From IMG/VR virus record IMGVR_UViG_3300020148_000032: a DNA stretch of 64,000 nucleotides. The stretch is one strand, 5' to 3'. How positions within the stretch are numbered: position 1 is the first letter of the stretch; every line of letters begins with the position of its first letter. This document shows, in pieces, positions 29,835 to 63,999 of this stretch. Source of the stretch: a virus (Duplodnaviria; Caudoviricetes). Under the pieces are notes generated by a model. It saw only the letters and a list, made by a program, of their open reading frames with translations. It did no database searches and had not been told where the DNA came from. The position numbers and the translations under genes were made by a program.

Positions 29835-30611
29835 ATGCCTAAATACCACATCTCTATAAATGGAGAGCCTGCAGTTTGTAGAGCTTTTAAGCGACCTTGC
29901 CCAGTAGGTGGAGAACATTTTGATACGATGAAAGATGCTAGAGGTTGGCTGGAATCAAAACTTGAGGCACTTACGATCACGTCATTATCAAAGAATCTTG
30001 ATTCTTATCCATTAGTGATGAAGAATGGAGAGCTTGTGAGAACCGGACTTGTCATGTCTAGTAATTTTATTAAAGAGGTTGCAGAGAAAAGCGATAAGAA
30101 TGAGAAGTGGTCTGGAACTTGGGAAGAACTAGAAAACCTTGTCATGAAGAATATGGATAATTGGTCTCCAGGTACTGGTAGTGTGGATGGGGATGTTCGT
30201 TTAGTTCATGTTCCTTCTGAAGGTTTTTATACTAATATTGTAGAAATAAATGATGAGAACAAGCATCTTGTTGAAACTGTTTGGGAAGCTCGAGTTGAGA
30301 AGGAAGATCCGGTACCGATTAGAGTGATCATGGGGGATGAATATGCTCCTGCTCATCATGTGGATGTAGTTCTTTATAGAGCTGATGTTCTTGCTAAGGA
30401 TGATGATAGATCAAGTATTGCTGAGTGGGAAATTGTGAGTGTTAATTCTAAACCTGAAGAATTTGTACCTATGCACCCTAATACTATGAAAAGGAATGCT
30501 TCTAATTCTGTAGGTGGAACGTTAAGGGAATACTCTAAAGAACAGTGGGAAGAGTCCGAAAAGTATTGGGATTCTCATGTATATGTTCGTCTTAAGAAGC
30601 AAGAATTTTAA
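29835..30611 (+). CDS. HCCH-module protein with DUF3228-like C-terminal domain
   Basis: N-terminal MPKYH..C..C..HF module; VVLY...W.IVS...PMHP.TM.RNA...GG...S..YW..H resembles DUF3228. Confidence 0.7.
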   Translation: MPKYHISINGEPAVCRAFKRPCPVGGEHFDTMKDARGWLESKLEALTITSLSKNLDSYPLVMKNGELVRTGLVMSSNFIKEVAEKSDKNEKWSGTWEELENLVMKNMDNWSPGTGSVDGDVRLVHVPSEGFYTNIVEINDENKHLVETVWEARVEKEDPVPIRVIMGDEYAPAHHVDVVLYRADVLAKDDDRSSIAEWEIVSVNSKPEEFVPMHPNTMKRNASNSVGGTLREYSKEQWEESEKYWDSHVYVRLKKQEF

Positions 30612-30614
30612 AGT

Positions 30615-31406
30615 TTAAGAGGTTGACCTGAGATTTTCAGAATATTTTTGGTAAATTTCTTTACCTATTTTGAAGGATTCTGAGGATGCTTTCTCCATAG
30701 TTTTCATGATTTTTTGAGCCCATGGGTGATCAGGTTCGGCTTGCAAGAACTTTAAGACTTCCATTCCTACGAGAGGTTGGAAGTAAACTGCATATATCGC
30801 ATCTTCGTCCCAATGATAAAGGTTCCCATTAACTGCAGCATCAGGGTGGTCAGAATTTTTCTTGAATTGTAAAGAAATACAACTTTTGAGAAACAAATAT
30901 TCGCGGCGGACCTTTTTGAAAGGGTTTTTCTCCTCATTTTCTCTTTTAGAGTTACCGAAAGTTTTTCGTGAGTGAGAATATAGTGATATACCCTTCTTAG
31001 TCTTTTTAGCGAAAGAGTAATGTTTTCTTTCTTTATAGCGAATGTGTTCTAGATCCTCTATAATCGGATCATATGGTAGAGGTTCGTGATTAGAGCCAAA
31101 TTTACATGCATTAAATTCAGCATCGTCAAGTATATTTTGCTGTTTCTTAGTGTAAGAATTAAGGTATTTTTGGTTAAAGTGTTCTGGAAGATAAGTTTCT
31201 TCTTTAAGTAGCTTTTTAGAAACTTTGTCCCCTGCTTCTATGTGCTCTTTTAAGTGGACGACTAAGTCAGTAGCATTGAAGAATGGTTGATCTTTAAACT
31301 TGTGTAGTTTGCATCCATCGCATTTAATATAACCACGGTAGTCAGAAATAATGGTAAGGGCTTCGTCTTTGTTAGTGTAGCGGTGTTGATTTTTTAACCA
31401 ATCCAT
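30615..31406 (-). CDS. Hypothetical protein with N-terminal C2H2-like motif
   Basis: CDGC...HLKEH; RBS present. Confidence 0.7.
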   Translation of the reverse strand: MDWLKNQHRYTNKDEALTIISDYRGYIKCDGCKLHKFKDQPFFNATDLVVHLKEHIEAGDKVSKKLLKEETYLPEHFNQKYLNSYTKKQQNILDDAEFNACKFGSNHEPLPYDPIIEDLEHIRYKERKHYSFAKKTKKGISLYSHSRKTFGNSKRENEEKNPFKKVRREYLFLKSCISLQFKKNSDHPDAAVNGNLYHWDEDAIYAVYFQPLVGMEVLKFLQAEPDHPWAQKIMKTMEKASSESFKIGKEIYQKYSENLRSTS

Positions 31407-31407
31407 T

Positions 31408-35583: not shown

Positions 35584-35621
35584 AAGTAACATTTTATCAA
35601 GAGTAGTTAGATAAATAGTTA

Positions 35622-36124
35622 TGAACATAGGAGAACAATATGCCAAAATTTCATATTAATAATAGCGGGAACGTAGGTATCTGTGAAGCACTACAAGGCA
35701 ATTGCCCTTTTGGCGGCCCAGAAGATCATTATGATTCTATAGTTTCAGCAGCCCGTGCTTTTGAAAAAGAGATGGAAAACCAAGCCTTCTCTCAAATGTC
35801 AAATACACAAAAGAATGATCTCTATTCCATTGCTATGGACGGGGATGAGGCTTATCACACGGGGCAATCCGTCCACAGCAATCCCCACCCTGAGGGCTCT
35901 CCGGAGTACGAGGTTTGGCTAGACGCTTTCAATAACCCCTCGGATCGTTAAATAGACGAAGAGAACATGCCCTACTACGAGTCAACGGATGAGAATTTAG
36001 CTGAGCAAGAGGCTGAACATAGGAGAACAATATGCCAAAATTTCATATTAACAATAGCGGGACAGTAGGTGTCTGTCAAGCACTACAAGGCAATTGCCCT
36101 TTTGGTGGCGAGGCAGATCATTAT
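35622..36124 (+). repeat. 111-bp direct repeat (35622-35732 and 36014-36124) covering RBS plus HCCH module
   Basis: Hand alignment gives 10 mismatches in 111 nt; identity stops after the final His-Tyr codons. Confidence 0.9.
35640..35951 (+). CDS. HCCH-module protein with ribosome-modulation-factor-like C-terminal motif
   Basis: MPKFH..C..C..HY; G.EAY..G.....NPH......W..AF. Confidence 0.7.
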   Translation: MPKFHINNSGNVGICEALQGNCPFGGPEDHYDSIVSAARAFEKEMENQAFSQMSNTQKNDLYSIAMDGDEAYHTGQSVHSNPHPEGSPEYEVWLDAFNNPSDR

Positions 36125-36463
36125 CCAACAGCCGCTAAAGCAAGAGTAGCTTATGAACAAAATAAAAACAATAAATCTATACCCGCTGTACTAAAATCGT
36201 CAATTATTACTGATAAACCAATAACTGAAGATGACTATATGCAGATTTCCGATACTTTTTATGATCTTTCTGAAAAATACGCAATGATTAAAGATAATCC
36301 TGCAGGTGAATCAGTGCGAGAAATTTTTGATGAGATTATCACAACTTCTAATCGTTATCGTAAAAATGAAATAGATATGTATATTCAGATGGAGTCAAAG
36401 ACTGGAGAGCCTCGAGTAGCAAAACTACTTAGAGATTATCTTGACTATATAAAGACTTTATAG
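36032..36463 (+). CDS. HCCH-module protein, unknown helical cargo
   Basis: Module nearly identical to 35640; unrelated C-terminus. Confidence 0.75.
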   Translation: MPKFHINNSGTVGVCQALQGNCPFGGEADHYPTAAKARVAYEQNKNNKSIPAVLKSSIITDKPITEDDYMQISDTFYDLSEKYAMIKDNPAGESVREIFDEIITTSNRYRKNEIDMYIQMESKTGEPRVAKLLRDYLDYIKTL

Positions 36464-36539: not shown

Positions 36540-38804
36540 TTAACTATTAAAAGTTGACGAGAAATCTTCTGGGCTCATGAACTTTAGCCCAAGTTTCTTA
36601 GCGACCACTGTCTTTGAAGAAGTTGAACTTTCATCTCCAATAATATAAGAAGTATCTTTCTTTGGCGAACTGTGGAAAATTCCTCCGTTACTCTCAATAT
36701 AATCTACCCATGCATTACGATTAGAGAAACCGGGCGGTACACTACCACTAATAGCAAAAGACAATCCGTTAAGAGATGTTTTGGAGCTCCCTTCAGAACT
36801 ATCGTCTGTTGATTGTGAAGCTTGTGGAACTGTAAATTCTACTCCATGATCACGAAGTTTCTGAATGAGTGCTGACCTCATTCTCAACCCATCGTAGATT
36901 TTCTTTGCTTTTATATCTCCAAGCCCATCAAGTACTGCTATTTCACTTTCTTTCGCGTTAAGAATTCCATCAATATCTCCAAAGCGCTTGACAAGCGCTT
37001 TGGCAGTAGACGGACCTAGAAGGTCAATATTAAGCGATGGAAGTACTTTAGTAAGTGGTCTTTTCTTTGATAGTTCTAAATGTTCAAGTATATGTTCAGC
37101 GATTTTTTCTCCTAAACGTCGTGGGTTGCCTTGATTAGAGTAACCATAAACACTATTACTTAATTCCTCTTTAGTAAGAGTATAAAGGTCAGATATATCA
37201 TTAACCCTGCCTATTTCATTAAAGTGATTAAGTGTAACTTCAGAAAGTTTATCAATGTCTAAGAAGTTCTTACCAACGGCAGTTTTTAATGCAAAGTAAT
37301 CTCTTGATGGACAATTAGGGTTATTACAATTAAGGGTTTTCGGTGGCCATACTCCAGCTTCTTCTCTTTTAGCTGAAAGCTTACCTTTGCACGATGGGCA
37401 CTCGTTAGGAATTTGTATTTTTTCTGTACCTTCTGGATTTGAAAGTACAGCAACTACTTGAGGAATAATGTCATTAGCTTTTTCAATAAGAACAATGCTT
37501 CCTACTCGAATATCTTTTTGATGAATAAGATTAAAATTATGTAATGAAGCATTGCTAATCTCTGACCCGGCAAGGTTCACTGGTTCAACTTTAGCAACTG
37601 GAGTTACTCTACCTGATTTACCTACTGTAAGATTAATTCCTATAACTGTAGTTTTTGCTTTCTCTGCAGGGTACTTCCATGCTATTTGAGAGACTGGGTG
37701 GTGAGAAGTGACCCCACTTTTCTCGTACATTTCACCTTCATTTGATGGTTTAATGACAACACCATCAGTAGGGATAGAGAAACCAGGTCTGACTTTTCCA
37801 AATTCATTAATCGCATCCATTACTTCTTTATTTGTTGAAAGGTTCGTAATAGTAAAAGATAATTGAGTTTCAGTAAGGTCATCTACACTAAGGAATCCAT
37901 CATTTGGGCTTAGGTCCTTGAGGTTCTTCATCACTCCGTTTTTAAGAGTTGAATATGTAGAGAATGTGAACTCTACTGGGTAACCTATTCCTAGTTTGGC
38001 TTTTTTGAGAAGCCCGGTTGCAGAATTTCTTGAATTTTTAAAGTGCTCTCCAGTGAGTTTAAATCTTTCATCGTCTGCTTTTTTAAATTGATCATTAGTG
38101 AAGAATAGCTCTCCTCTTACTTCTACTTTTTCTTTTTCCTCTATATAGAGAGGAAGTCCTTGTACTTTTACTGATGGGTCCTTAATGAGATAAGTTACAT
38201 CCTCACCTACAGATCCGTCACCTCTTGTGGCAATACGACTAATTTTACCTTCTTTATAGTAAACAGATATCGCTAGACCGTCAAGTTTCGCTTGTAATCT
38301 AAAACTTGTGGCTCCGTCTTTTCTAGTCTTATCAAGAAAAGACATTAAATCTTCCTCTTTTTTAGCTTTATTGAGGGAAAGCATTGGTACTTCGTGATGA
38401 ACAATTTCATCACTGTTAGTTTGTGTACCTAGTGATACGTCACCGTCGAGTAATTTGTACCCGTCTGTCCCTTCTGTAAACAAATGTTGATACTGACCAG
38501 AATCTGAAAGAGAGTGAAGATACGCTTGTTTAGCGTCAAATTCTTCATCACTTAGTTCTGATTCCCCAGAACCTTGATAATATTCTTGTGATGCATCTAA
38601 TAACTCTTTAATGAGATTCTTTACGTCTGATTCTGGTATTTTCTTTTCAACAGTCATTGGTAGAGAGAAACTTTCTTCATAGAATGAGCGAGCTTTTTCA
38701 ATCGTATCAAAATGTTCATCATCAGATCCAAAGGGACATACCCCTGTTGTTACTTTACATAAACCTGATTCTCCAGTTTGAGTATTAACATGATATTTCG
38801 GCAT
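36540..38804 (-). CDS. ligA: NAD-dependent DNA ligase with an extra N-terminal HCCH module
   Basis: PMLSL, KLDG, TRGDG, EVRGE, DGVVIK, WKYP, OB-fold, Cys Zn finger, HhH, BRCT. Confidence 0.95.
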   Translation of the reverse strand: MPKYHVNTQTGESGLCKVTTGVCPFGSDDEHFDTIEKARSFYEESFSLPMTVEKKIPESDVKNLIKELLDASQEYYQGSGESELSDEEFDAKQAYLHSLSDSGQYQHLFTEGTDGYKLLDGDVSLGTQTNSDEIVHHEVPMLSLNKAKKEEDLMSFLDKTRKDGATSFRLQAKLDGLAISVYYKEGKISRIATRGDGSVGEDVTYLIKDPSVKVQGLPLYIEEKEKVEVRGELFFTNDQFKKADDERFKLTGEHFKNSRNSATGLLKKAKLGIGYPVEFTFSTYSTLKNGVMKNLKDLSPNDGFLSVDDLTETQLSFTITNLSTNKEVMDAINEFGKVRPGFSIPTDGVVIKPSNEGEMYEKSGVTSHHPVSQIAWKYPAEKAKTTVIGINLTVGKSGRVTPVAKVEPVNLAGSEISNASLHNFNLIHQKDIRVGSIVLIEKANDIIPQVVAVLSNPEGTEKIQIPNECPSCKGKLSAKREEAGVWPPKTLNCNNPNCPSRDYFALKTAVGKNFLDIDKLSEVTLNHFNEIGRVNDISDLYTLTKEELSNSVYGYSNQGNPRRLGEKIAEHILEHLELSKKRPLTKVLPSLNIDLLGPSTAKALVKRFGDIDGILNAKESEIAVLDGLGDIKAKKIYDGLRMRSALIQKLRDHGVEFTVPQASQSTDDSSEGSSKTSLNGLSFAISGSVPPGFSNRNAWVDYIESNGGIFHSSPKKDTSYIIGDESSTSSKTVVAKKLGLKFMSPEDFSSTFNS

Positions 38805-38857
38805 TAAAAAGCTCCTTAAACGTATTCATATTATACTAATCTTTCTATATAAAACTC

Positions 38858-40288: not shown

Positions 40289-40339
40289 ATTAGGGCCTCG
40301 TCTTTCAAAAATATAATATATCTTTGGTGGTAGTTAAAA

Positions 40340-41380: not shown

Positions 41381-41433
41381 AGAAAGCGCACCTTTCTCCT
41401 TTTGTTTTTATAACAAAAATAATATCACTAAAG

Positions 41434-43025: not shown

Positions 43026-43030
43026 TAAAG

Positions 43031-43648: not shown

Positions 43649-43662
43649 ATATTTCCTTTATC

Positions 43663-44613: not shown

Positions 44614-44614
44614 C

Positions 44615-46471: not shown

Positions 46472-46474
46472 TTT

Positions 46475-47377: not shown

Positions 47378-47422
47378 ACTGTTTCCTAACTATTCGACTA
47401 CATTTTAATATCACTATAAACA

Positions 47423-47455: not shown

Positions 47456-47476
47456 GAAAGACTAACTTAATATAAA

Positions 47477-51215: not shown

Positions 51216-51773
51216 TTAGTTCATATTAAAAGCGCGCAATTGACCACTGAATACATCTTCAGGATTGATTTTGTTATTTGGAGAATCATCCATGATATCA
51301 ATATTACTGGACCCAAAAGCGTCAGTGACAGGAGTCTTTGAAAGTTCATCAAAAGAGACTAATTGAACTTTGTTCTCGTTTTTGATGAGTTCTACAATAG
51401 CTTTCTTCGTAGGTTCGTTTAACTCTGGAAAACCTTCAACAGTTTTCTTAATTCTAGAATAAAGTTCATAATTTCCGCCGAACCACTTCTCTACTAATTC
51501 ATCAGTACTTGAAACATCAACAAGTGTTTCCTTATCTTTAAGACCAAGATTAAGAAGAGTTCCTTTTAATAAATCTCTATTTTGTGAGAACAATGACTTT
51601 TTTACTGAAACGGAGGCTGATCCAAATTCAGACACTAAAGATTCTTGAGCAGATTTAACTGCGGCTTCTTTAGAAGTAAAATGATTGTCCTGACCAGAGT
51701 CACCACCGAAGCGACATTTGATCTTAGCGTGACAAACCTTTACTTCGCCTTTAGCATTAATATGATACTTCAT
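51216..51773 (-). CDS. HCCH-module protein, unknown cargo
   Basis: MKYHINAKGEVKVCHAKIKCRFGG...HF. Confidence 0.75.
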   Translation of the reverse strand: MKYHINAKGEVKVCHAKIKCRFGGDSGQDNHFTSKEAAVKSAQESLVSEFGSASVSVKKSLFSQNRDLLKGTLLNLGLKDKETLVDVSSTDELVEKWFGGNYELYSRIKKTVEGFPELNEPTKKAIVELIKNENKVQLVSFDELSKTPVTDAFGSSNIDIMDDSPNNKINPEDVFSGQLRAFNMN

Positions 51774-51814
51774 GAGAAATCCTCGATTAATTTTATTTAT
51801 TTTCTAACTCATTA

Positions 51815-52825: not shown

Positions 52826-55270
52826 TTACACTATTTGAGAATGACCAAAATTTATATCTCCAGTAAAGTCAACACCACGAGCGGCACGCTTCGAAAGGGT
52901 CGGAAGAATAGACGCATTATGGAATTTTGCCATAGACATAATAGGGTTATTAGAGATAAACGCTTGAACAAGTCGGGTTTCACCCTTCTTGAAAGTATGC
53001 AAAGCAACACCCTGCGCACCCTTATTCTTTGTTGGAATCTCAGTAATAGGAGTAGCTTTCAATGTTTGATCCCCTTGAGAGTAAATAAAGGTGTCTTTAT
53101 CCTTGATAGACTTCACCCAACCAAAGTAAATAGCCTCATCAGAGTCATTCTTCAACTTGATACCTCGGACACCACCAGCTTTAGAACCAGAAGCTCGAAT
53201 AGAAGCAGCATCAAAAACAAGTATGTTTGATTCCTTAGTGACAAACGAGAAGTGTGTGCCATCGAGTGACTTATCAAGCCAAACGGCTGAAAGAACAGCG
53301 TCATCATCGTCAATAAGAATAACTGGGAATTCATCCTTATTCGGGAAATCAACCTTAGAAACTTTCACAAGTCCCTTCTTTGTACCAAGAGCAACACCAA
53401 CATCATTCTTACCAAGAGTATCCTTAGCAATACCAATGATAGTGACTCCCTTAGGTAGGTCAAGGCCAAGAGTTCTTGGTGTACTAACAGCATCAGTATT
53501 CAAGTATGAAAGAGGAATGCGACGACCAATACCGTCGCTTCCAATAAGAACAATATTATCATTCGTATTCATACTCAATTGACCAAGTATCGGCCCATTC
53601 TTGAACTTCTTCAAAGTGGGGTTATACTTGAATGCCGAATCACCCTTAATAATGACATTATCAACAAACAAGTTTACAAAGCAAGGACTGTCTTTTACCT
53701 CAACCTTAATATCTTTAGCAAGAGCCTTTTCAGTCTCAATAGCCTCTTCAGTTGTCATATTAGAGATAACAGTCTTACGTTCGTCTCCAATAATTTTGAG
53801 AGTTTCATCAAACTCTTTAATGAGGTAATCACGAAGAACACCCTCATCACGCAAAAGTTTCTTAATGTAAGAAATCTCTGCAGTAAGCTCTTTCTTCTCA
53901 GTTTGAAGAGCAACAGAATCCATCTTAGTTAAACGACGAAGTTTAAGCTCAAGAACATAATTAGCCTGCTCTTCATCAATTTTGAAAGTTTTCTGAAGTT
54001 TAGTATTAGCAACAGTATCGTTATCTGACTTACGAATAATAGCGATAGCAGCATCAATATCTAAAAGGGTTTTCAAAAGACCCTCAATAAGATGAAGTCG
54101 ATTATTTTTCTTGTTAAGAGAGTGAGTCATCTTATTCTTGATACACATTTTGCGGAATTCAATAAAATCAAGCAGCAAATCCTTCATTGAAGATACTACC
54201 GGGCGATTATTCACAATAGTAGTAATGTTCACTGAGAAGTTAGATTCAAGGCTTGTCCCAGCAAAAAGATCTTTAAGAACCTTCTTGTAGTTCACTCCAT
54301 TCTTCGTTTCAATCACAAGTCGAATAGGGTGCTTGAGGTCTGACAAGTCCTTATAATTAGCAATTTCCTTAAAACCTCCAGTTGCAGACTTTTTCTGTAT
54401 TTCTTCAATAATCTTTTCTGGATAAGTACCGAAAGGAATTTCGTAAAATTCAATCCTTGTGCTGCCGCGCTGACCAGGGATAACATCATACTGACCACGA
54501 ATCTTGAATGAACCCTTACCAGTCTCGAGGTACTCTTTAATACCATCATTAGAAGTAATAAGACCACCCATGTTAAAGTCAGGTCCCTGAACAATTTTTG
54601 CAATAGAAGCAGTAGTAGCATTAGGGTTACGCACTAAAGTCTTACATGCCTGCATGATCTCAGTAGGATTATGAGAAGGCATAGATGAAGCATAACCAAC
54701 AGCGATACCAGAACCCCCGTTAATGACAGCAATTGGCCAACGCACTGGAAGTCGAGTAGGTTCATCAAGTTTGCCGTCATAGTTTTTACCCATAGTGACA
54801 GCGTTCTCGGCGAGCTCTTCAACATTCAACCAAGCGGCTTTATTAAGTCTTGCCTCAAGATAACGACCAGCAGCACCAGGAGTACCAGGAACACCGAAGT
54901 CGCCCTTACCGTCAATAAGAGGTACGCGGAAAATGTGGTCACGAGCAAGATTCTTCAAAGCGTCACTTACTGACGAGTCACCGTGAGGGTGGTACGCAAG
55001 AACACGACCAGCAAGAGTTGCAACCTTAGATCTGTTAGAGTTAGGAGTCAAACCATCCTTATACATTGAGTAAAGAATACGTTTCTGAACTGGCTTAAGA
55101 CCCGAAACGTCTACAAGAGCTCGATCAAGAACATATGACCAAGAATATGGGAGGAAGTTATCAGTCAAAAATTTTTCAACTGGAGTAACCTCAACAGTTC
55201 CAGCAATATTTTGGAATTTAGCCTTCTTTGCTTTGAGGTCCTCATCATTCAATACTTTCTTACGTGCCAT
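52826..55270 (-). CDS. gyrA: Type IIA topoisomerase subunit A (GyrA/ParC)
   Basis: GLKPVQ.RILY, YHPHGD, AA.RY.EARL catalytic Tyr, GIAVG, beta-pinwheel-like CTD; gyrase versus topo IV not resolved. Confidence 0.9.
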   Translation of the reverse strand: MARKKVLNDEDLKAKKAKFQNIAGTVEVTPVEKFLTDNFLPYSWSYVLDRALVDVSGLKPVQKRILYSMYKDGLTPNSNRSKVATLAGRVLAYHPHGDSSVSDALKNLARDHIFRVPLIDGKGDFGVPGTPGAAGRYLEARLNKAAWLNVEELAENAVTMGKNYDGKLDEPTRLPVRWPIAVINGGSGIAVGYASSMPSHNPTEIMQACKTLVRNPNATTASIAKIVQGPDFNMGGLITSNDGIKEYLETGKGSFKIRGQYDVIPGQRGSTRIEFYEIPFGTYPEKIIEEIQKKSATGGFKEIANYKDLSDLKHPIRLVIETKNGVNYKKVLKDLFAGTSLESNFSVNITTIVNNRPVVSSMKDLLLDFIEFRKMCIKNKMTHSLNKKNNRLHLIEGLLKTLLDIDAAIAIIRKSDNDTVANTKLQKTFKIDEEQANYVLELKLRRLTKMDSVALQTEKKELTAEISYIKKLLRDEGVLRDYLIKEFDETLKIIGDERKTVISNMTTEEAIETEKALAKDIKVEVKDSPCFVNLFVDNVIIKGDSAFKYNPTLKKFKNGPILGQLSMNTNDNIVLIGSDGIGRRIPLSYLNTDAVSTPRTLGLDLPKGVTIIGIAKDTLGKNDVGVALGTKKGLVKVSKVDFPNKDEFPVILIDDDDAVLSAVWLDKSLDGTHFSFVTKESNILVFDAASIRASGSKAGGVRGIKLKNDSDEAIYFGWVKSIKDKDTFIYSQGDQTLKATPITEIPTKNKGAQGVALHTFKKGETRLVQAFISNNPIMSMAKFHNASILPTLSKRAARGVDFTGDINFGHSQIV

Positions 55271-55396
55271 TACTTACTTACCATCCTTGCGTTAAAAATA
55301 GAGTACATCACTACTATTTTATCAAAATCGAACGTAGAATTAATATATCAACTTTAAAGGAGTTAGAAAATATTCTAACAACAAAGGTAGGTTCTT

Positions 55397-56305
55397 ATGA
55401 AAATCCACATTACCCGAGAAGGTGACGCACGGCCATGTTTCGCTGAGAAAGGAAACTGTCCATTCGGTGGCGAAAGCGACCATTATCCAAACGCTCAAGT
55501 TGCACGAGAAGCATACGAAGAAAAAATGGCGAACATTGGAAATGCTCTCAAAAGCATCACCTCTCAAGAACAAAGAGAATTAGATGAGCTTGAGGCAAAA
55601 ATCTATAAAGATCACACTGATCTTCCAGATGACTGGCGAATATCAAAAAGCCGTTACTCTCTAGAATTGTCCTCTATCACTCCAACTCTAGGACTTGCCC
55701 CAACCGGACCGAACGGATCTCCATTAAAATTGCTTGATGGAAACCCACGCACTGAAGAGAAAGATGGATTATGGGTAGTCACAAGTGCAGAAATTGCCAT
55801 CTCAGGTCCATTCTCAACAGTCAAAGACGTGAAAGACTACTTTGCTCAATACAGGAAAGATGCTAGTGAAGGGAAACTACCTGGTACTGGAGTGACTCCA
55901 GACATGTGGGACGGAGCGCCACCATCACGAAAGCGTTCACCACGAACAACTAAACCCCACTCATCACAAAAAACTAGGTCTAGCTCTTCACTTCCAGTTC
56001 GAAAGACTAAAAAAGGTGAATACATCTGGTTTAACACTGAGGAAAAAGCAAAAGCCACTCGAAAAGAACTAGACTCTCAAGGTTATGATGTTTCAAAACT
56101 TCCAAAAGAGGACTACAGTAAAAAATACTTTATCTCTCGATCAGCAACATCATTCTCTAAAAGAATCGAAAGAGGTTTCGCAACAAAAGCACAACTTGAT
56201 AAATACATGAAAGACTGGAATCGTTATGATCACCTCCATGACAGTATAGAGGTTATTGACAGAGACACTATCCTCAATCAAGCCGGAAGAAAACTCATTC
56301 CATAA
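55397..56305 (+). CDS. HCCH-module protein, unknown cargo
   Basis: MKIHITREGDARPCFAEKGNCPFGGESDHY...AREAYE. Confidence 0.75.
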   Translation: MKIHITREGDARPCFAEKGNCPFGGESDHYPNAQVAREAYEEKMANIGNALKSITSQEQRELDELEAKIYKDHTDLPDDWRISKSRYSLELSSITPTLGLAPTGPNGSPLKLLDGNPRTEEKDGLWVVTSAEIAISGPFSTVKDVKDYFAQYRKDASEGKLPGTGVTPDMWDGAPPSRKRSPRTTKPHSSQKTRSSSSLPVRKTKKGEYIWFNTEEKAKATRKELDSQGYDVSKLPKEDYSKKYFISRSATSFSKRIERGFATKAQLDKYMKDWNRYDHLHDSIEVIDRDTILNQAGRKLIP

Positions 56306-56420: not shown

Positions 56421-57113
56421 TCAAAGCTTTCTACAAGTACTACAATACAATCGCACCTTGGCTCTCTTATTAGACTCAGACACACAATACTCTCTATCAC
56501 AACGAGAACACGTTAGCTCTACTCCACCAAAAGACAATGAATAACACTTACGAGAGCAATACTTACCCCTGCCATCCCTTACCCTGCTAGGGTTAGTAGA
56601 GAACAACTCAGAACATTGTAAACATTCTCTCAAAAAAGTCGTCCGCATAGAATCATACAAACAATCAAGTGAGCAATACTTCGCATTCCAACGCTCAGAG
56701 CGAGTGAAAGTCACCCGGAAGGAAGTACCACACATTTCACAAAAAATATCTACCGCCGGAAGCAAACTTCTAGGTGACTCTAACTCTTCCATTACTAAAG
56801 ACCGCAAACGCTTAATTAATATTTCAGTCACTTCCTGTGCTTGCCTTACCTCATTACACAACAAATGCGCAGGTTTAATATTTTCTATCGTGTCACTACC
56901 ACCTAAAGATTTCGGAATAACATGATCTTCGCTGAAAGAAAGAACATTCTGAACACGAGAACCATCAGGATAAAACACATAAGAATCAAGAGTAGTGTCA
57001 ATAGAGTAACCACAAATCCAACACAACTCCGACTTTGCCCAATAAAGACCCTTCACATAAGCGGACTTTCGAAACTTTTCTAGATTACTCACAGGTAAGA
57101 ACTCCACAATCAA
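56421..57113 (-). CDS. HNH endonuclease with C-terminal Cys-rich Zn-finger repeats (homing-endonuclease-like)
   Basis: CWICG...DHVIP.S.GG.D..EN..PAH..CN; three C..C...YCS..C repeats. Confidence 0.85.
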   Translation of the reverse strand: MIVEFLPVSNLEKFRKSAYVKGLYWAKSELCWICGYSIDTTLDSYVFYPDGSRVQNVLSFSEDHVIPKSLGGSDTIENIKPAHLLCNEVRQAQEVTEILIKRLRSLVMEELESPRSLLPAVDIFCEMCGTSFRVTFTRSERWNAKYCSLDCLYDSMRTTFLRECLQCSELFSTNPSRVRDGRGKYCSRKCYSLSFGGVELTCSRCDREYCVSESNKRAKVRLYCSTCRKL

Positions 57114-57291: not shown

Positions 57292-59421
57292 TTAATCCGT
57301 ACCAGACTCAAAACCCTCAACAAGTCCAGTTTCAACGGCTACCGAGAAGTTATCACTCATGAAATCCTTACGTTCTTGTGATGAATCACCCATAGTAAGA
57401 ATAAGAGCTTCCTCGGCTTTCTTCACGTCTTCAAGTGTAATGCGCTTGAGGACACGCTTCTCAGGATCAAGTACAGTGTCATAGAAGCTTTGCGGCTCCA
57501 TCTCTCCTAATCCTTTGTTTCGGTCAACCTTATACGTCTTACCATTCTTCTCAAGTCGCTTCAAAATCTGTGCAAGTTCTGGCTCACCAGCCGCATACTC
57601 AACAACCTGATTCTTACCAGTACCAACAGTGACCTCAAAAAGTGGCGGTACAGTCTGATACACACGACCCTCAGCAACCATATCCTTAAACAAACGATGG
57701 AAGACTGTATAAAGAAGGTTGTTAATTTGCAGACCATCCACGTCGGCGTCGGCAGCGAATAATACTCTACCATACCTTACCTTCGAGATATCAAAATGAT
57801 TACCAAAACCACCACCTAAAGCCTTAGCAATATCCATTACTTCCTTATTAGCAAGAATAGCAGAATTAGCAGCCTTCAAACTATTCAAAACCTTACCACG
57901 CACAGGAAGAACAGCCTGATAAGTAGCATCACGAGCCTTCTTAATAGTACCAGCAGCCGAATCACCCTCGCAAATCAACAACTCGCACTCATCAGTACCA
58001 GTAAGATCACAATCAGCAAGTTTAGCAGGCATAGAACTACTCGACACCTGATTAGACTTACGCTTAGCAAGCTTCGCCTCGCTAGCAGCCAAACGATTCT
58101 TACTAGCTTGAACAACCTTCTCAAACATCGGTTTCAAAAATGCCTGATTACCAGAAGCCTCAACAAAACGACCCAACAAATCAGTAAAAGCCTTAGTCAA
58201 AGCCTTCTCCAACTCAGGGCCACTAATCTTATCCTTCTGCTGACCAGCAAACTGTGGCTCAGGAACATTCACACTCAAAGCCACAGTAAGACCCTCAAAA
58301 TAATCATCAAGAATAGGTGGCTCATCCTTAGCGCTCAACACACCACGCATACTAGACATACGATCACCAAAAGTCTTCACAAGAGCCTTCTCGAAAGCAC
58401 GCTCATGCACACCCCCAAGGTGCGTGTGAATCGTATTTACGAAGCTTGCAAAAGACTTCTCATAACCAACACCATACCTAAACGCAACCTCAGCAGTCGC
58501 CACACGACTCACATCACTCAAATGACCAGCCTCATCAGCAGCAATCTCACTATAATGAGCCTCAGTCTTCAAATGATAAATACCCTTACTAGTAAAAATA
58601 TTACCCTTACTATTCGTACCAGGGAGGAGCTCATCACTACTCAAAGCTTCAACCATCTCAGGAAGACCATGCTCGCTATAAAATTCCCACGAATAAAAAC
58701 TTCCATCCTCATACTGACGATTTTCATCCACAACAGTAATACGCAACTTAGGAACAATATAAGAAATATAACGCAAACGATCAACAAGATTATCAATGTC
58801 AATACGCTCATCCGCAGGGAAACGATCCTGATTATACCACAACCGAATCAACGTACCAGTTTTAAACAACTTCTTATCAGCCGCCGGGCGAGTATCAGCA
58901 ACGCTCTTTACCTTATCACCAGGAGTAAACTTAGCATCTGGACCTTCCCCCGCAAAATGACCCGAATAACCATTCTGGAAACTCAACGAGAATTCTTTAC
59001 CCTCTTTATAAACAATAGCATCAAAACGCTTAGATAAAGCATTCGTTACTGAGGCACCCACACCGTTTAGACCAGCTCCAGCCTTACCCGCAGCCACGTT
59101 ATTACTAAAGTTCGCACCAGCATGAAGTGTTGCCATTGTAAGTATGATACCGTTGACGCCGGTTTTCTTGTTAATGTCTGTTGGAAGCCCCCGCCCGTCG
59201 TCTTGGACGCTTGCCATACCGTCTTTACCGAAGGTGACGTGGACTCTAGTGGCGTAGCCTCTTAAAGATTCATGAACAGAGTTATCGATGATTTCTCGTA
59301 AACCTACAGATTGTTGACTACCTCTGTCACCGAGGTACATACTCGGTCTTTTCCATACTGAGATGGGATATTCAAGTTTAGTAATTTCGTCAGCTGTATA
59401 GCTATCGTTTTTTGTTGTCAT
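57292..59421 (-). CDS. gyrB: Type IIA topoisomerase subunit B (GyrB/ParE)
   Basis: KRP.MYLG, EIIDNS, DDGRG.P, GL.GVG.SV.NALS, EGDSA, PVRGK, DADVDG, KGLGEM. Confidence 0.93.
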   Translation of the reverse strand: MTTKNDSYTADEITKLEYPISVWKRPSMYLGDRGSQQSVGLREIIDNSVHESLRGYATRVHVTFGKDGMASVQDDGRGLPTDINKKTGVNGIILTMATLHAGANFSNNVAAGKAGAGLNGVGASVTNALSKRFDAIVYKEGKEFSLSFQNGYSGHFAGEGPDAKFTPGDKVKSVADTRPAADKKLFKTGTLIRLWYNQDRFPADERIDIDNLVDRLRYISYIVPKLRITVVDENRQYEDGSFYSWEFYSEHGLPEMVEALSSDELLPGTNSKGNIFTSKGIYHLKTEAHYSEIAADEAGHLSDVSRVATAEVAFRYGVGYEKSFASFVNTIHTHLGGVHERAFEKALVKTFGDRMSSMRGVLSAKDEPPILDDYFEGLTVALSVNVPEPQFAGQQKDKISGPELEKALTKAFTDLLGRFVEASGNQAFLKPMFEKVVQASKNRLAASEAKLAKRKSNQVSSSSMPAKLADCDLTGTDECELLICEGDSAAGTIKKARDATYQAVLPVRGKVLNSLKAANSAILANKEVMDIAKALGGGFGNHFDISKVRYGRVLFAADADVDGLQINNLLYTVFHRLFKDMVAEGRVYQTVPPLFEVTVGTGKNQVVEYAAGEPELAQILKRLEKNGKTYKVDRNKGLGEMEPQSFYDTVLDPEKRVLKRITLEDVKKAEEALILTMGDSSQERKDFMSDNFSVAVETGLVEGFESGTD

Positions 59422-59439: not shown

Positions 59440-60240
59440 TTACTTGCGTAGTTTAGATATATTATCAGGTAGATGTGCGAGCGTCGAATCTATAAGGTTT
59501 TTATAAGACCCGTCTCGAATCTCGTCTTCCCATATGTCTATTATTATTATACCGAATTGTTGTGCAGCTAGTTCTTTTTTAAGTAAATGATAACTAGGTC
59601 CATTTTTGAAACGGGTATCGTTTTCTTTTAAAGAGAGTGGGATAGAGTCAGAGTATTTGTCATGTGTTTTGAAGTCTTGTATTTCGAACCCTATATTGTA
59701 ATCTTCTAGTAATATGTCTATTTCAAGAAGGGTATTTTTGTATTTGATTGGTCGAGTGTTTCTTTTGTAAGAAATGTTTAGAGAATCGAGGTATGAGCAG
59801 ATTGGGTCTTCTAAAGACGCTTTCTTTTTATTATCTAGGTGGGGTAGAGCAGAGTTTCTTATTTTAGTAATTCCAAAATAGAGTAAGTAATCTACTCGTG
59901 TTGGTAAACGTTGATTATTTTTGTGGAAGTCTTTTGCCCATTGTTGAGGGTTTTCGTAGTAATGCTTGATTTCTTGATTTACGTTTTTTGTTGATTTGTT
60001 TAAATTGAGACATGTTTGAGAGCAGTATTCTTTTGTTCGTGATTTGATGATTGGAAACTTTTGTTGACATGTAGGGCATTTTCTTGTGTGTTTTCCACAG
60101 TTTTTAGTATTACTAGTTGTTGTGGGGAACTCTTTTTCGCAAATGTTACATTTTCTGGTTTTTGTTTTTAAATGTCGGAGATTGTGAATTGCTGTGCATC
60201 TTTTTCCGCAGAGTTTCTTAGTAGAGAGCGAACATTGTCT
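59440..60240 (-). CDS. Zn-finger plus PD-(D/E)xK/Vsr-like putative homing endonuclease; 266-codon frame with no ATG/GTG/TTG start (missed by ORF track)
   Basis: Hand translation: CNICEKEF, CPTCQQKF, YCSQTC, S.LE..I..YL, EIDI...IGFEIQ, YH..K...GI.II.IWEDE. Confidence 0.7.
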   Translation of the reverse strand, partial: RQCSLSTKKLCGKRCTAIHNLRHLKTKTRKCNICEKEFPTTTSNTKNCGKHTRKCPTCQQKFPIIKSRTKEYCSQTCLNLNKSTKNVNQEIKHYYENPQQWAKDFHKNNQRLPTRVDYLLYFGITKIRNSALPHLDNKKKASLEDPICSYLDSLNISYKRNTRPIKYKNTLLEIDILLEDYNIGFEIQDFKTHDKYSDSIPLSLKENDTRFKNGPSYHLLKKELAAQQFGIIIIDIWEDEIRDGSYKNLIDSTLAHLPDNISKLRK

Positions 60241-60569
60241 CTATATTTAAGATATTCGCCGTTTACCTTATTTTCTATTTCTGATAACTCTTTGTTATTT
60301 TGTATAAGCTCTAACACATCGTACAAAACGGCAAATTTCTCTAGATCTGTTTTATCCTCCCAACCTTTTTGCTCCCAAGGGGTTAAGTTTTTTGAAATTT
60401 TAGAGAAACTATTCTCGTATTCTTTACTTAGTTTTTGCATATACATGATTGATGCTTCGGCAGGGGTCGCTGCATCGAAGTGAGAGTCAGCGCCTCCGAA
60501 TGGGCAGTTCACTTTAGTTGCTTTACAAATAGCAATGTCGCCGTTAGAATTTAAATGATATTTCGCCAT
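60168..60569 (-). CDS. HCCH-module protein, short paralogue of 61665-62951
   Basis: CKATKVNCP.GG..HFDA...EA...YMQ.L..EYE...L.PW...W shared. Confidence 0.75.
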   Translation of the reverse strand: MAKYHLNSNGDIAICKATKVNCPFGGADSHFDAATPAEASIMYMQKLSKEYENSFSKISKNLTPWEQKGWEDKTDLEKFAVLYDVLELIQNNKELSEIENKVNGEYLKYRDNVRSLLRNSAEKDAQQFTISDI

Positions 60570-60596
60570 AAGAATAGTTCTTTATCGTAATATAAG

Positions 60597-60614
60597 TTTT
60601 TCTATATAGAAAAA
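60597..60614. promoter_or_regulatory. Perfect 18-bp palindrome TTTTTCTATATAGAAAAA; putative back-to-back promoter box
   Basis: Supplies TAGAAAA on both strands, 35 and 33 nt upstream of the divergent module genes. Confidence 0.65.
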
Positions 60615-60639: not shown

Positions 60640-61464
60640 ATGACTGTTAAGTATCATATTAGTGCTGATGGTAATGTTCGCCAGTGTCGCGCCAAAACTC
60701 CAGATTCGTGTAGAGCTACAAAAACAGGGTTCAATGATCATTTTGATGATAAAGATTCTGCACGAAAAGCTTATGAGGACAAGCAACGTGAGCAAATGAA
60801 TAAAATAATGTCTACATTTAATAAAATGGAAAAGAAAGAAACTGTTGCTTCTAACGCGAATGTTACAGCTGAGGTTCTTGCACATCAAGAAGTTTTGAAA
60901 AAAGCGGAATCCATTTTATCTAAAATTACCCCGCAAGATAAAGACGAACGCGGATATTATGAAAGCGATCTTTATTATCCACTTTTCGTTAATTCGAAAA
61001 GGTGTATTGAGGGAACTCGAGAGATAAAAGATACTGTCAAATATGATCCAAAAGTGGTGTCAAGTTACACTAACTTTATTGTTTCTTTAAACACATTTGA
61101 ATTGATAAAATCTGGGTCTAAGATAGATTCAGACGTGAAAAAATCATTCCAAGACTTGTATAAGAAAGCTATTCTTGCTAGAGAGAAAATTGCGGGAGTT
61201 GAGGGTTTCCCTAAAGTAGACTTGGTTGAATTTGTAAAAAATGCTGCTTCTAATGACTCTAGAACTAAATTATTGAACCTTAGAAATGAATCTATTTTAG
61301 CTCATGCAGCTTTTGATATTCACAGAGGAATTCCATTGGGGACCAGCATGAAACTAGACCCTGATTATTTGAACGAGTACCCACGGGCACGCAAACTTTT
61401 AAGACAGAATGATAGACTCAATCAATTAAGGAAGAAATTAGGTCTGAAGGAAACAGGCTTTTAA
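60640..61464 (+). CDS. HCCH-module protein, paralogue of 63097-63999
   Basis: HIS.DGNVRQCRA.TP.SCRAT...HFD; shared FDIHRG.PLGT. Confidence 0.8.
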   Translation: MTVKYHISADGNVRQCRAKTPDSCRATKTGFNDHFDDKDSARKAYEDKQREQMNKIMSTFNKMEKKETVASNANVTAEVLAHQEVLKKAESILSKITPQDKDERGYYESDLYYPLFVNSKRCIEGTREIKDTVKYDPKVVSSYTNFIVSLNTFELIKSGSKIDSDVKKSFQDLYKKAILAREKIAGVEGFPKVDLVEFVKNAASNDSRTKLLNLRNESILAHAAFDIHRGIPLGTSMKLDPDYLNEYPRARKLLRQNDRLNQLRKKLGLKETGF

Positions 61465-61652: not shown

Positions 61653-61664
61653 TAATTCTTGTGA

Positions 61665-62951
61665 TTAAAAATCAACATATGGCGACCCTTCACCAACATA
61701 TTCTTTATTTTTGAGTCGATTAAGAAGATGTTTCTTTTGAGCTCTACTAAGTTTGAGTTTACGAGGTTTTGCCTCTAAAAGAGCATTAATTCCTCTTAAA
61801 GAAAGGTGAGGGCTTGTGACAAAAGAATCAATGACTTCTCTATCGTCAGAGTGTAATACTATTTGTCTTACATGAGCATTGTGAAAGTTAGGGTTTTTTG
61901 ATAATTGTATTAGTCTTTTCTTTGCGAAATTTTTGTAATTTTTATCTGTATGAGATAGGCTCATCTCAATAGCAAACCTTTCAACATAACTAGAACTTAT
62001 ATCCCTAGTTTTTTCGGCTAGCTCGTCAGCAGCTTTAGAATCATTAAGATAATATGATTCAAGTATTAAATCAGCTCGCGAAGAATTTTTTACTATTTTC
62101 TCTGTTAAAGAGTTATTTGAGTGACCATTACGTTTTAATCTTAATACCTCGTAAGAAAGATCATAATTATCGGCCAATTCTTTATCAGTTACAATTTGAG
62201 TGAAAGCTTCTATATCTTTTTCAGAACCGTCTTTCAAGATATAATAACCAGCTTCACTCACTCCGTTTTCTTTCATTTTTGTAAGAACTTCTTTTCTTTT
62301 CTCATCATTAAGAGTTTTAAGATATGCTTTTAGCTTGTACGGACGAGTATAGTCATCTTCAGTAAACTCTTTACCGTTAGAGTACTCATCGGCGAGTTCT
62401 TGTATAGACTTGTTTTCAAATTCTTCATCAATTTCTCTATTATATTGATCAAGATAATCTTTCATTGTTGCAGTAAAGAGAACTCTTCTCCCTTGTGCTG
62501 GTGAGAGATTCTTGTTTCCTATGAGTCTTAAAGGGTTCACTATTTCTGGATTGTTAAGGTAATCGTCAAAAGTTTTTTCGTCTTCTGCATAAAATATTTC
62601 TGCATTGAGCTCTCCTGTAGCTTCAGAAATTCTGTATCGAACCTCAGAATAAAGATCTTCATTATCTAGTACTCCTTTTTTGTGAAGTGCTGATTCTATT
62701 TCTTTGAGTATTATTATTTTTTGGACATAGGTGAGAGAATTCCACGAAGTTTTAATCCATGGCTTGAGAGCGTTATGAGTTTGTAAAATTTTTCCTTCGT
62801 ACTCATCATTCAATCTTTGCATGTATTGAACATTAGCCTCTTGAGCATTATTTGCATCAAAATGTAACTCTTCTCCCCCAAGCGGACAATTCACTTTAGT
62901 GGCTTTACAAAGGGTGATTTCGCCTTTTTTATTAACGTGGTATTTAGACAT
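61665..62951 (-). CDS. HCCH-module protein with helical-repeat-like cargo
   Basis: MSKYHVNKKGEITLCKATKVNCPLGGEELHF; helical body with N.N(L/F)-type turns. Confidence 0.8.
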   Translation of the reverse strand: MSKYHVNKKGEITLCKATKVNCPLGGEELHFDANNAQEANVQYMQRLNDEYEGKILQTHNALKPWIKTSWNSLTYVQKIIILKEIESALHKKGVLDNEDLYSEVRYRISEATGELNAEIFYAEDEKTFDDYLNNPEIVNPLRLIGNKNLSPAQGRRVLFTATMKDYLDQYNREIDEEFENKSIQELADEYSNGKEFTEDDYTRPYKLKAYLKTLNDEKRKEVLTKMKENGVSEAGYYILKDGSEKDIEAFTQIVTDKELADNYDLSYEVLRLKRNGHSNNSLTEKIVKNSSRADLILESYYLNDSKAADELAEKTRDISSSYVERFAIEMSLSHTDKNYKNFAKKRLIQLSKNPNFHNAHVRQIVLHSDDREVIDSFVTSPHLSLRGINALLEAKPRKLKLSRAQKKHLLNRLKNKEYVGEGSPYVDF

Positions 62952-63096
62952 AAAGTTCTCCTTAAAGATATTGTCTTTTCTATATAAAAAAAACTTTAAT
63001 GAACTTAAATTATTTTTTTAAAATACCCCTTATTCTTATTCCTTCTAATAAGTATTTAGAAAAGGATTCATCAAATGAATTATAAGGAGTGAATTT

Positions 63097-63999
63097 ATGA
63101 GTAACAAATTTCATATAAGCCCTGATGGTAATGTGCGCCAATGCCGAGCACAAACACCTGAGTCATGTAGAGCTACTGTTAGTAGATTCAAAGAACATTT
63201 TGACACTAAAGAAGAGGCAAGAGAGGGCTATGAAGCGAAAATGAAGAAGCTTTACCCGCAGGCAGGGATAGTTAAGAGAGCAACCGCCCCTAATCCCACT
63301 GCACCGAAAAAGTACAAGTTTAAATTTAATGATGAAGACCTTAAAGAAATAGCAGAACTTGAAGGTGAAATTAAAAACATAAAGGATATTATTCAGGAAG
63401 AAAAAGAAATCATGTATGGTTTCCAAAAAAGCGAGTTCTCCATTATTAAAGTAACTTCTCCAAAAGCTTTAGTGAGAAGAACTAAACATATAAAACCTAG
63501 TGTTAAGCACCCTGAAGATGTAAAAAAAGCTTATATAAACCTTGCAACCGCATTAAAAGATATTAAAGATTTACCTAAAAGAGATGTAACTCCTGACGAA
63601 ATAAGGAACACTTTTAAAAGATTGAAGGAAAGTTCAGAAATCGCTCAGAATTCTTTGAAAACAGATTTACTTTCCGAATTTAACTTTAGAAAGCTTCCTG
63701 AAATCCTTACTAATACACATAATTCTCGCACTTACTTTAGCCAAGATTATAAAATAACAAAAATGTTAGATCGAATTGGATTTGATATCCATCGGGGTTT
63801 CCCATTGGGGACTACACATAGAAACGTTGAAGATTTCGTAGAAGAATATCTAGAAAAAGAAAGAATTAAACGGAAAGCTCGTGAGGCTCGAAAGCAAACG
63901 ATTACAGACATTCTTAAAGAAGAAGCCGAGAGTGTAGCAAAGGAAGAGAAAAAGAATAGAAGAGACAATATTTTGTCAAGAATCTTTAATAGATCTTAA
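63097..63999 (+). CDS. HCCH-module protein, paralogue of 60640-61464
   Basis: Shared module and FDIHRG.PLGT motif; AGGAG RBS. Confidence 0.8.
   Translation: MSNKFHISPDGNVRQCRAQTPESCRATVSRFKEHFDTKEEAREGYEAKMKKLYPQAGIVKRATAPNPTAPKKYKFKFNDEDLKEIAELEGEIKNIKDIIQEEKEIMYGFQKSEFSIIKVTSPKALVRRTKHIKPSVKHPEDVKKAYINLATALKDIKDLPKRDVTPDEIRNTFKRLKESSEIAQNSLKTDLLSEFNFRKLPEILTNTHNSRTYFSQDYKITKMLDRIGFDIHRGFPLGTTHRNVEDFVEEYLEKERIKRKAREARKQTITDILKEEAESVAKEEKKNRRDNILSRIFNRS

Follow-up and report, generated by a model that had tools for sequence, protein, structure and literature searches.

The same N-terminal His-Cys-Cys-His (HCCH) mini-domain of ~45–50 residues heads ten open reading frames (ORFs) of the 64 kb stretch of DNA analysed here (the window). 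It is a previously unnamed mini-domain, and we tentatively read it as a protein–protein docking, or address, tag for a co-expressed set of cargo proteins. An earlier note on this DNA had listed ten ORFs that begin with the motif, and every one of them was found where the note had placed it. They are given below, with the evidence for each in brackets.

29835..30611, + strand: HCCH module (residues 1–50) and DUF3228 body (ORF, Pfam, six-frame scan, AF2)
35640..35951, + strand: HCCH module and 53-residue tail, 103 aa (ORF, scan, HMM, AF2 with pLDDT 82.8 for the module)
36032..36463, + strand: HCCH module and unannotated body, 143 aa, without a promoter box of its own (ORF, scan, HMM)
36540..38804, − strand: HCCH module and complete NAD-dependent DNA ligase, 754 aa (Pfam, PHROGs)
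51216..51773, − strand: HCCH module and unannotated body, 185 aa (ORF, scan, HMM)
55397..56305, + strand: HCCH module and unannotated basic body, 302 aa (ORF, scan, HMM, pI)
60168..60569, − strand: HCCH module and short body, 133 aa (ORF, scan, HMM)
60640..61464, + strand: HCCH variant (C-x7-SC-R) and body paralogous to that of 63097 (ORF, scan, BLASTP)
61665..62951, − strand: HCCH module and unannotated body, 428 aa (ORF, scan, HMM)
63097..63999, + strand: HCCH variant and body paralogous to that of 60640 (ORF, scan, BLASTP)

Common to all of them (10/10) is M-x(0-2)-K-[YFI]-H-[IVL]..G..C..C..H[FY], followed by a helix. A regular-expression scan of the six-frame translation of the whole 64 kb matched those ten ORFs and no others, with no copies at positions 1–29.8 kb; every copy in the window began 1–3 residues past the start Met, and none was internal. 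The HMM built from the ten N-termini, a check proposed in the note, likewise recovered all ten copies from the six-frame translation (E about 4e-19 to 4e-26). The claim that the module is always at the extreme N-terminus holds for the ten window copies, but not for a few relatives that carry a tandem or partial second copy further in (P0011, P0014 and P0027). Similarly, of the supposedly invariant H, C, C and H, the H, C and H are invariant in the ten copies, but the second Cys is displaced by one residue in the ‘SCRAT’ variants of 60640 and 63097. Across 142 relatives, the ligand residues His5, Cys15, Cys22 and His30 are invariant, with the order and spacing H-x9-C-x6-C-x7-H. The helix described in the note as A..A[YF]E-type is there too, its motif being better written as S/T-x-E-E-A-R-x-A-[YF]-E-x-x-M. 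The mean net charge of the module is −0.67, pI values between 4.7 and 9.1 were obtained for the ten copies in the window, and a weak Lys-rich patch lies 23–27 residues beyond the last His.

Residues 1–50 of the ten proteins matched no family in Pfam (E ≤ 0.1), NCBIfam (E ≤ 1) or PHROGs (E ≤ 0.01), and the module of the 142 relatives matched none either. A profile search of the PDB with the module gave no significant match, the sole sequence hit being the helix of the PARP3 WGR domain (E = 1.2). Neither tblastn with the module against public phage and plasmid records nor megablast with 20 kb against phages gave a match, and a related-loci search with GyrA as the query returned no close relatives. 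A description of the motif, which the earlier note had not recognised as a characterised signal, was not found in a literature search.

The AF2 model of the module (from 35640) has strands at residues 4–6 and 12–14 and a helix at residues 34–54, and the predicted fold is a beta-hairpin and a CP-x-GG knuckle followed by a long amphipathic helix. This fold is seen again when the 29835 protein is modelled at full length (mean pLDDT 91.6). There, two domains are predicted with confidence, pLDDT drops between them at residues 41–60, and the fold of the DUF3228 body matches 2pd0/4fbd. In sequence and model, the four invariant Cys/His residues are placed on the hairpin, the knuckle and the helix N-terminus, as in small zinc ribbons and treble-clef knuckles, which are also of ~45 residues; most likely, His5, Cys15, Cys22 and His30 hold one zinc ion. 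In contrast to these, the spacing of the module fits no Pfam zinc-finger model. In fold searches of the PDB, the best matches (Foldseek, E = 0.33; VIA, Z = 3.9) were both Kunitz-type, and there was no match at Z = 4 or above. As far as the model goes, the likeness to the disulfide-rich Kunitz domains (Z 3–4) is one of topology only. Searches of the ESM Atlas returned only Kunitz-like topologies or other tagged proteins, and those of BFVD 11 proteins of a single record, which, by the lengths of its proteins, is apparently the relative G003 described below.

The bodies that follow the module are diverse. The note had called them mostly unrelated, and BLASTP bears this out for all except those of 60640 and 63097, which are distant paralogues (24% identity, E = 5e-10). 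Of the names it had given to bodies, ligase and DUF3228 are supported by Pfam, while for ‘RMF-like’ Pfam gives nothing. The ligase (38804, − strand) has the Pfam domains DNA_ligase_aden, OB, HHH and BRCT, and matches phrog_3869 over residues 58–753. Of the bodies joined to the module, mostly unannotated, 143 fell into 110 BLAST clusters; the few named cargo domains are ligase, DUF3228, HD, HD_4, HAD, Zeta_toxin/AAA_33, CCA-adding enzyme, RNase_T and LRV/HEAT.

The module is facultative on orthologous cargo. Among 120 proteins closely homologous to the DUF3228 cargo (41–63% identity), only 11 had it, and it is missing from the ligase of G003 and from one paralogue in Gracilibacillus. The module is a portable add-on, separate from the cargo's own activity, and it has the features of a portable docking tag: terminal position, unrelated cargo and dispensability for the cargo family.

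The tagged genes also share a promoter element. A TAGAWAR box was found 30–43 nt upstream of 9/10 tagged genes in the window vs 2/63 other genes (Fisher p = 5.5e-9), at the following positions.

29805..29811, + strand: TAGAWAR box, 30 nt upstream of the 29835 start
35608..35614, + strand: TAGAWAR box, 32 nt upstream of the 35640 start
38841..38847, − strand: TAGAWAR box, 43 nt upstream of the ligase start
51800..51806, − strand: TAGAWAR box, 33 nt upstream of the 51773 start
55364..55370, + strand: TAGAWAR box, 33 nt upstream of the 55397 start
60596..60613, no strand assigned: perfect palindrome TTTTTCTATATAGAAAAA, giving the box to the divergent pair 60569 (−) and 60640 (+)
62976..62982, − strand: TAGAWAR box, 31 nt upstream of the 62951 start
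63057..63063, + strand: TAGAWAR box, 40 nt upstream of the 63097 start

The gene at 36032, in which a box of its own is absent, is probably transcribed by read-through from 35640. Related boxes precede 10/11 tagged vs 31/404 other genes in G003, and occur also in the L001, L003 and G001 contigs. Judged by these upstream sequences, the tagged genes are a promoter class of their own and a co-regulated set.

In a profile search of metagenome protein clusters, 4,945 clusters matched the module at E ≤ 1e-3, and the match started at residue 1–2 in 146 of the best 150. Stand-alone modules, in proteins of 63–80 aa, occur as well. The carriers are contigs of 437 (the window's own), 504, 573, 683 and 828 kb, and G003 is a complete, circular relative of 325 kb with 11 tagged genes. 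These elements have 29–35% GC and come from differing habitats, and the module surface is strongly conserved across them. A strict pattern applied to 185,579 species genomes was found only in one MAG holding such contigs and in one Gracilibacillus, and sampling of 400 + 400 genomes from two classes turned up no module. Three copies lie in the Gracilibacillus halotolerans chromosome. The module is thus specific to a clade of giant (0.3–0.8 Mb) uncultured phage- or plasmid-like elements, and is almost absent from cellular genomes. A small bacterium (CPR) was considered as the carrier and rejected, since the contigs with the relatives' gyrase were binned together with a host-type gyrase, most genes lack a Pfam match, and a complete circular relative of 325 kb is known.

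The tagged elements share a TcpE / VirB4-HerA-like / ParA-like / VirB11-like gene set. The window, contig C31 of G001 and G003 show synteny for TcpE, the AAA_10 ATPase and the ParA-like gene, and the AAA_10 ATPases of the same megacontigs are 50–65% identical. This ATPase is half-size, with a weak T4SS-DNA_transf match. A complex prediction with the module and AAA_10 ATPase alignments scored 0.00 (‘no answer’), which bears neither way. The Tad pilus was rejected as an obligatory apparatus because G003 has 11 tagged genes, yet no TadA, TadB or TadC. Terminase, portal, capsid, sheath and prohead protease were looked for in G003 and none was found; PF03420, PF05065 and PF07068 were not found there, although the PF03420 and PF07068 controls matched nowhere either. 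The route into a virion is therefore without support from this complete relative.

The earlier note had read the module as an address label. That it is portable, N-terminal, facultative and attached to diverse cargo agrees with this reading, but the virion route it had included does not fare as well, as no virion genes were found in G003. A docking tag for the co-expressed cargo is the reading that we prefer, tentatively, and the net charge of −0.67 fits protein binding better than nucleic-acid binding. If so, the module would leave the ribosome first and fold round zinc, and one conserved element-encoded partner would then bind it and bring all of the co-expressed cargo to one place, for export alongside the element's DNA or for assembly at one cellular site. 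A short or flexible join links the module to the unrelated bodies, and the dozens of tagged genes per element, each with its own promoter box, make up one co-expressed set. Export could run by loading into particles or through the conserved set of membrane ATPases (TcpE / VirB4-HerA-like / VirB11-like). More specifically, the module might be the loading signal of a new protein-delivery route, in which the ATPase set, including the ParA-like protein, reads the zinc tag and moves dozens of ready-made enzymes or effectors, together with element DNA, into the next host, in elements without recognisable tailed-phage virion genes; we regard this as a long shot. For a whole clade of 0.3–0.8 Mb elements, whose genes are ~90% unannotated, an address label would define which proteins are delivered or assembled together, and these number dozens in each genome and fall into thousands of clusters worldwide. 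It would also provide a handle on the receiving machine, a new small zinc domain for protein-family catalogues, and possibly a compact fusion tag for loading proteins.

Known sorting systems resemble the module in part. The capsid-targeting sequence (CTS) of T4, carried by IPI–III and Alt, is an unstructured N-terminal peptide of ~10 residues that is removed by the prohead protease. Like the module, this N-terminal tag of a large phage heads unrelated proteins, enzymes among them, that do not need it for activity, and it takes them to one destination, as the module would on our reading. In contrast to this short unstructured peptide with its protease site, the module is a folded Cys/His domain of 45–50 residues, and no cleavage, prohead protease or capsid gene was identified for the tagged elements. 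Cleavage after the conserved A-[YF]-E, by analogy with prohead proteases, is not supported, as the helix in which these residues lie runs on to the conserved Met, and no protease was found. MuF polymorphic toxins of temperate phages and DUF4157 cargo of contractile injection systems have an N-terminal trafficking or loading domain followed by hypervariable C-terminal enzyme or toxin domains. They share with the tagged proteins a conserved N-terminal domain on variable bodies, including kinase- and nuclease-type cargo, but the module is far smaller, its genes number dozens per genome instead of one or few, and neither the ten window proteins nor the 142 relatives had a MuF or DUF4157 Pfam match. 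XVIPCD and other C-terminal type IV secretion signals are shared domains on diverse effectors, read by a secretion ATPase (for XVIPCD, a VirD4-type coupling protein) and devoid of a metal site. VirB4/VirB11-type ATPases are indeed conserved in the tagged elements; unlike these signals, the module is N-terminal, and only the half-size AAA_10 ATPase, with no coupling protein or relaxase, was identified.

An alternative that we consider rather unlikely is that the module is a recruitment adaptor inside the producing cell, binding one conserved hub (replisome, RNA polymerase, ribosome or factory scaffold) and gathering repair or take-over enzymes, with no export. The named cargo speaks for it, as these are nucleic-acid end-processing and repair enzymes (ligase, RNase_T/DnaQ, CCA-adding enzyme, HD, HAD, P-loop kinase), and so does the strong conservation of the module surface across the elements, which a conserved ligand would predict. 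Tandem copies and stand-alone modules point the same way, since they suit a binding domain better than they would a pure export signal, as do the chromosomal copies of Gracilibacillus, where the AAA_10 ATPase query found no homologue; all of these count against the docking-tag reading. The ligase, CCA-adding enzyme, exonuclease and kinase are cytoplasmic nucleic-acid enzymes, so recruitment to a substrate or hub fits them equally well as transport. On the other hand, an adaptor has no need of a near-exclusive N-terminal position, and the cargo, mostly unannotated and hypervariable, resembles effectors more than core enzymes. Even as a shared adaptor, the tag would mark co-regulated repair or take-over enzymes and a dedicated promoter class.

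It is improbable that the module is a nucleic-acid-binding zinc finger, similar to GRF-type fingers or to BRO-N and KilA-N heads, which tethers cargo to element DNA or to tRNA or RNA ends. Its fusion to ligase, exonuclease and CCA-adding enzyme, the weak Lys-rich patch and the non-significant hit to the PARP3 WGR helix are in line with such a finger, but basic DNA-binding fingers differ from it in charge and pI, and no fold reached Z = 4. BRO-N and KilA-N are DNA-binding domains of ~100 residues without a Cys/His metal site; like the module, they are conserved N-terminal domains on many proteins with variable C-termini in large viral genomes, but the module is not basic and is, by its lack of a Pfam match, neither of them.

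Quite doubtful, too, is a regulatory or stability handle that determines how long the proteins of a temporal class last, either as a degron responsive to zinc or redox state or as an element recognised by a chaperone or protease. One promoter class for the tagged genes suggests temporal control, and the N-terminal position and the optional presence on orthologues would suit such a handle, but a folded, conserved 45-residue domain exceeds the usual needs of a degron, no protease or chaperone is linked to the module, and stand-alone modules would be purposeless. Finally, a chance or compositional artefact, or ORFs that are not genes, for which no point in favour was found, is ruled out by HMM E-values down to 1e-26, by the 1,304 database clusters that match at E ≤ 1e-10, by an RBS and a promoter box at each gene (36032 excepted for the box), and by ligand residues that stay fixed while the bodies and the DNA diverge.

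All ten translated ORFs that the earlier note had described as tagged open with M-x(0-2)-K-[YFI]-H-[IVL]-x(2-4)-G-x(4)-C-x(5-7)-C-x(4-9)-H-[FY], and a helix comes next. Scanned with a regular expression, the six-frame translation of the whole 64 kb yielded these ten, with starts at 29835(+), 35640(+), 36032(+), 38804(-), 51773(-), 55397(+), 60569(-), 60640(+), 62951(-) and 63097(+), and no others; a start codon immediately preceded every copy, and none lay in 1-29.8 kb. A profile built from the ten N-termini scored the ten at E = 4e-19 to 4e-26, and in these proteins the module itself had no match in Pfam, PHROGs or NCBIfam. A membrane-like segment was absent from all ten. As a Cys/His mini-domain, the module is new and strongly conserved.

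Behind the module, Pfam confirmed a complete NAD-dependent ligase (36540-38804) and, in the ORF at 29835-30611, a DUF3228 domain; it was silent on the other eight tagged bodies. The proposed 'RMF-like' body is without support. BLASTP showed no relation among the bodies, except for those of 60640 and 63097, which are 24% identical. The module was present on 11 of 120 homologues of the DUF3228 cargo (41-63% identity; many from similar megacontigs), while in the remaining 109 the body begins directly, with no module. Similarly, the window's ligase has the module and that of G003, a complete IMG/VR relative, has none, and of the paralogous two-gene cassettes of Gracilibacillus, one encodes a first protein with the module and the other a first protein without it. 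As tagged and untagged orthologues or paralogues occur in all these cases, the tag is an optional add-on and not a part of the cargo activity. The untagged DUF3228 homologues P0437, P0441, P0491 and P0493 carry other short Cys/His N-terminal extensions (e.g., G-x2-C-x5-C-x2-H-x3-H), which may be decayed or variant forms of the tag.

Searched against 1.84 billion representative proteins, the module profile matched 4,945 clusters at E <= 1e-3, of which 1,304 passed E <= 1e-10. The claim that the module is always at the extreme N-terminus stood for 146 of the 150 best matches, in which the match starts at residue 1 or 2, but needs amendment for a few relatives with a second copy, full or partial; a few others are stand-alone modules. 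The shortest protein among the best 150 matches has 63 residues and the longest 428. Across 142 aligned relatives, His5, Cys15, Cys22 and His30 were invariant, Gly10, Ala17, Pro23, Gly25 and Ala37 nearly so, and no conservation was seen past residue 50. The bodies of 143 relatives fell into 110 BLAST clusters, and only a handful contained a Pfam domain. The domains found were HD, Zeta_toxin/AAA_33 and DUF6745, with HAD, HEAT/LRV, HD_4, CCA-adding enzyme and RNase_T in further relatives and Zeta_toxin again in G003. The cargo behind the module is hypervariable and mostly unknown.

The carriers of the module are giant contigs. The contig bearing the window's own protein spans 436,884 bp and other module-bearing contigs span 305 to 828 kb. 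Tagged genes can be clustered on them, with four inside about 20 kb of a 740 kb contig and six within about 20 kb of a 20.7 kb Logan contig, whose protein cluster extends to an 81 kb contig; the neighbours of the tagged genes on the 740 kb and 20.7 kb contigs mostly had no Pfam match. A strict degenerate DNA pattern run on 185,579 species genomes gave two matches only, the MAG 'Clostridiales bacterium AS08sgBPME_396' and Gracilibacillus halotolerans DSM 11805. The MAG has 16 module copies on a few contigs. One of these contigs, C31, encodes homologues of three window proteins, GyrA (40% identity), TadA (46%) and the AAA_10 ATPase (35%), and a second GyrA, of host type, lies elsewhere in the bin; thus, C31 comes from a relative of the window's element that was binned with the MAG. 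G. halotolerans, the only cultured carrier found, has three divergent HCCH proteins in two paralogous two-gene cassettes (contig C25, 2716-4611, L038; contig C12, 8184-9956, L040), one of which adjoins an LXG-like toxin gene. Its tagged genes are at C25:2716-3765, C25:3832-4611 and C12:9138-9956, and the paralogue without the module is at C12:8184-9083. The second protein of the cassettes has LRV/HEAT-like repeats, an architecture that recurs in megacontig relatives. Samples of 400 further genomes from each of two classes (about 800 cellular genomes) contained no module, nor did deposited phages and plasmids, and the ESM Atlas neighbours of the module are clusters labelled 100% viral. The module is restricted to a single clade of giant elements, and cellular genomes are nearly free of it.

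We modelled the first 60 residues with AlphaFold2 from a 147-sequence alignment and obtained a confident structure (pLDDT 82.8), in which a hairpin (4-6/12-14) is followed by a loop with a CP-x-GG knuckle and by a helix (34-54). Neither Foldseek nor an exhaustive structural scan gave a significant relative of the module; the best matches, to Kunitz-type domains, were non-significant (E = 0.33, Z = 3.9). In a model of the full-length DUF3228 fusion (pLDDT 91.6) the module had the same shape as on its own, confidence dropped to 70-78 over residues 41-60, and the body came next as a domain of its own, matching the DUF3228 structures 2pd0 and 4fbd.

In its architecture the module matches trafficking or docking tags, of which the T4 capsid-targeting sequence, MuF toxins and contractile-injection cargo domains are examples. 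We tentatively read it as a docking or address tag, for which we infer zinc binding, a partner and a destination. A role as an intracellular recruitment adaptor, which we consider rather unlikely, has in its favour that the named cargo includes repair-type enzymes, that tandem copies of the module occur, and that Gracilibacillus has chromosomal copies. The mean net charge of the module is -0.67; Ser, Lys, Glu and Ala abound in the 30 residues after it, where there is also a weak Lys patch. That the module is acidic to neutral argues for a protein partner and not for nucleic acid. A nucleic-acid finger is improbable, and a stability or regulatory handle seems slightly less probable still.

The tagged genes share an upstream box as well. 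TAGAWAR was found 30-43 nt upstream of nine of the ten tagged starts in the window, as against 2 of 63 other window genes that have it within 70 nt upstream, with a different spacing (Fisher p = 5.5e-9). The tagged gene without its own box, 36032, follows 35640, with which it is probably co-transcribed. The divergent tagged pair 60569/60640 shares a perfect 18-nt palindrome, TTTTTCTATATAGAAAAA, at 60596-60613, and the box may serve a dimeric regulator as operator, instead of or besides being a promoter element. A GTTAGAAA-type box was also present upstream of tagged genes on two unrelated megacontigs, and a TGATAT[TA]-type box upstream of those in the MAG contigs and in G003, where it precedes 10 of 11 tagged genes versus 31 of 404 others. 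Two box types were thus found across five elements, and from these upstream sequences the tagged genes are predicted to be co-regulated.

G003 is complete (324,925 bp, terminal repeats, 29.5% GC, about 415 ORFs), and its eleven tagged genes are scattered along the genome. The window features compared with it are listed below.

Window features compared with the complete relative
25166-29650 (within), plus strand: very acidic Asp/Ser/Gly/Val-rich ORF, 1006 residues
28235-29650, plus strand: second VirB11/PilB-like ATPase
38936-40288, minus strand: CpaE/ParA-like ATPase
40340-41380, minus strand: CpaB-like protein
41434-42648, minus strand: AAA_10 (VirB4/HerA-like) ATPase
42591-43025, minus strand: TcpE
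43663-44613 and 46475-47377, minus strand: TadB/C-like proteins
44615-46471, minus strand: TadA-like T2SSE ATPase
47477-47761, minus strand: Flp-like pilin

GyrA, a YdjM-like protein, an unknown protein, TcpE, the AAA_10 ATPase and the CpaE/ParA-like ATPase are syntenic in the window and G003. Conservation of the AAA_10 ATPase is unusually high, with 50-65% identity on tag-bearing megacontigs of 226-828 kb; it seems to belong to the core genes of the clade, with secretion or DNA translocation/packaging as candidate roles. Around the acidic ORF, which is conserved in G003, GC is raised (0.44-0.51) and GC skew is strong; the VirB11/PilB-like ATPase follows it, and the adjacent pair is kept in G003, where the ATPase homologue has partial PHROG matches to 'terminase large subunit' families in the P-loop region only. 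G003 also has T4-like replication genes and several transposases. Its record is labelled Siphoviridae/Uroviricota, and automated pipelines call the element viral. A six-frame search of G003 with nine Pfam families gave no virion gene (terminase, portal, HK97/T4/NCLDV capsid, sheath, prohead protease) above threshold, while a genome with prophages, used as the positive control, gave matches, though for PF03420 and PF07068 no control did; we therefore call the element giant phage- or plasmid-like.

The minus-strand genes at 38936-47761 form a complete Tad-type pilus locus adjoining conjugation-type genes. The Tad genes are present again on C31 and absent from G003; since G003 has tagged genes all the same, a required partnership with the Tad pilus is excluded.

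Apart from a 471-residue ORF at 5598-7013 (-), which matches phrog_4400 (E = 2.5e-23) and a nucleotidyltransferase PHROG, almost nothing in the window's first 20 kb is annotatable. Between GyrA (52826-55270) and GyrB (57292-59421), a free-standing HNH endonuclease ORF at 56421-57113 (-) probably encodes a homing endonuclease.
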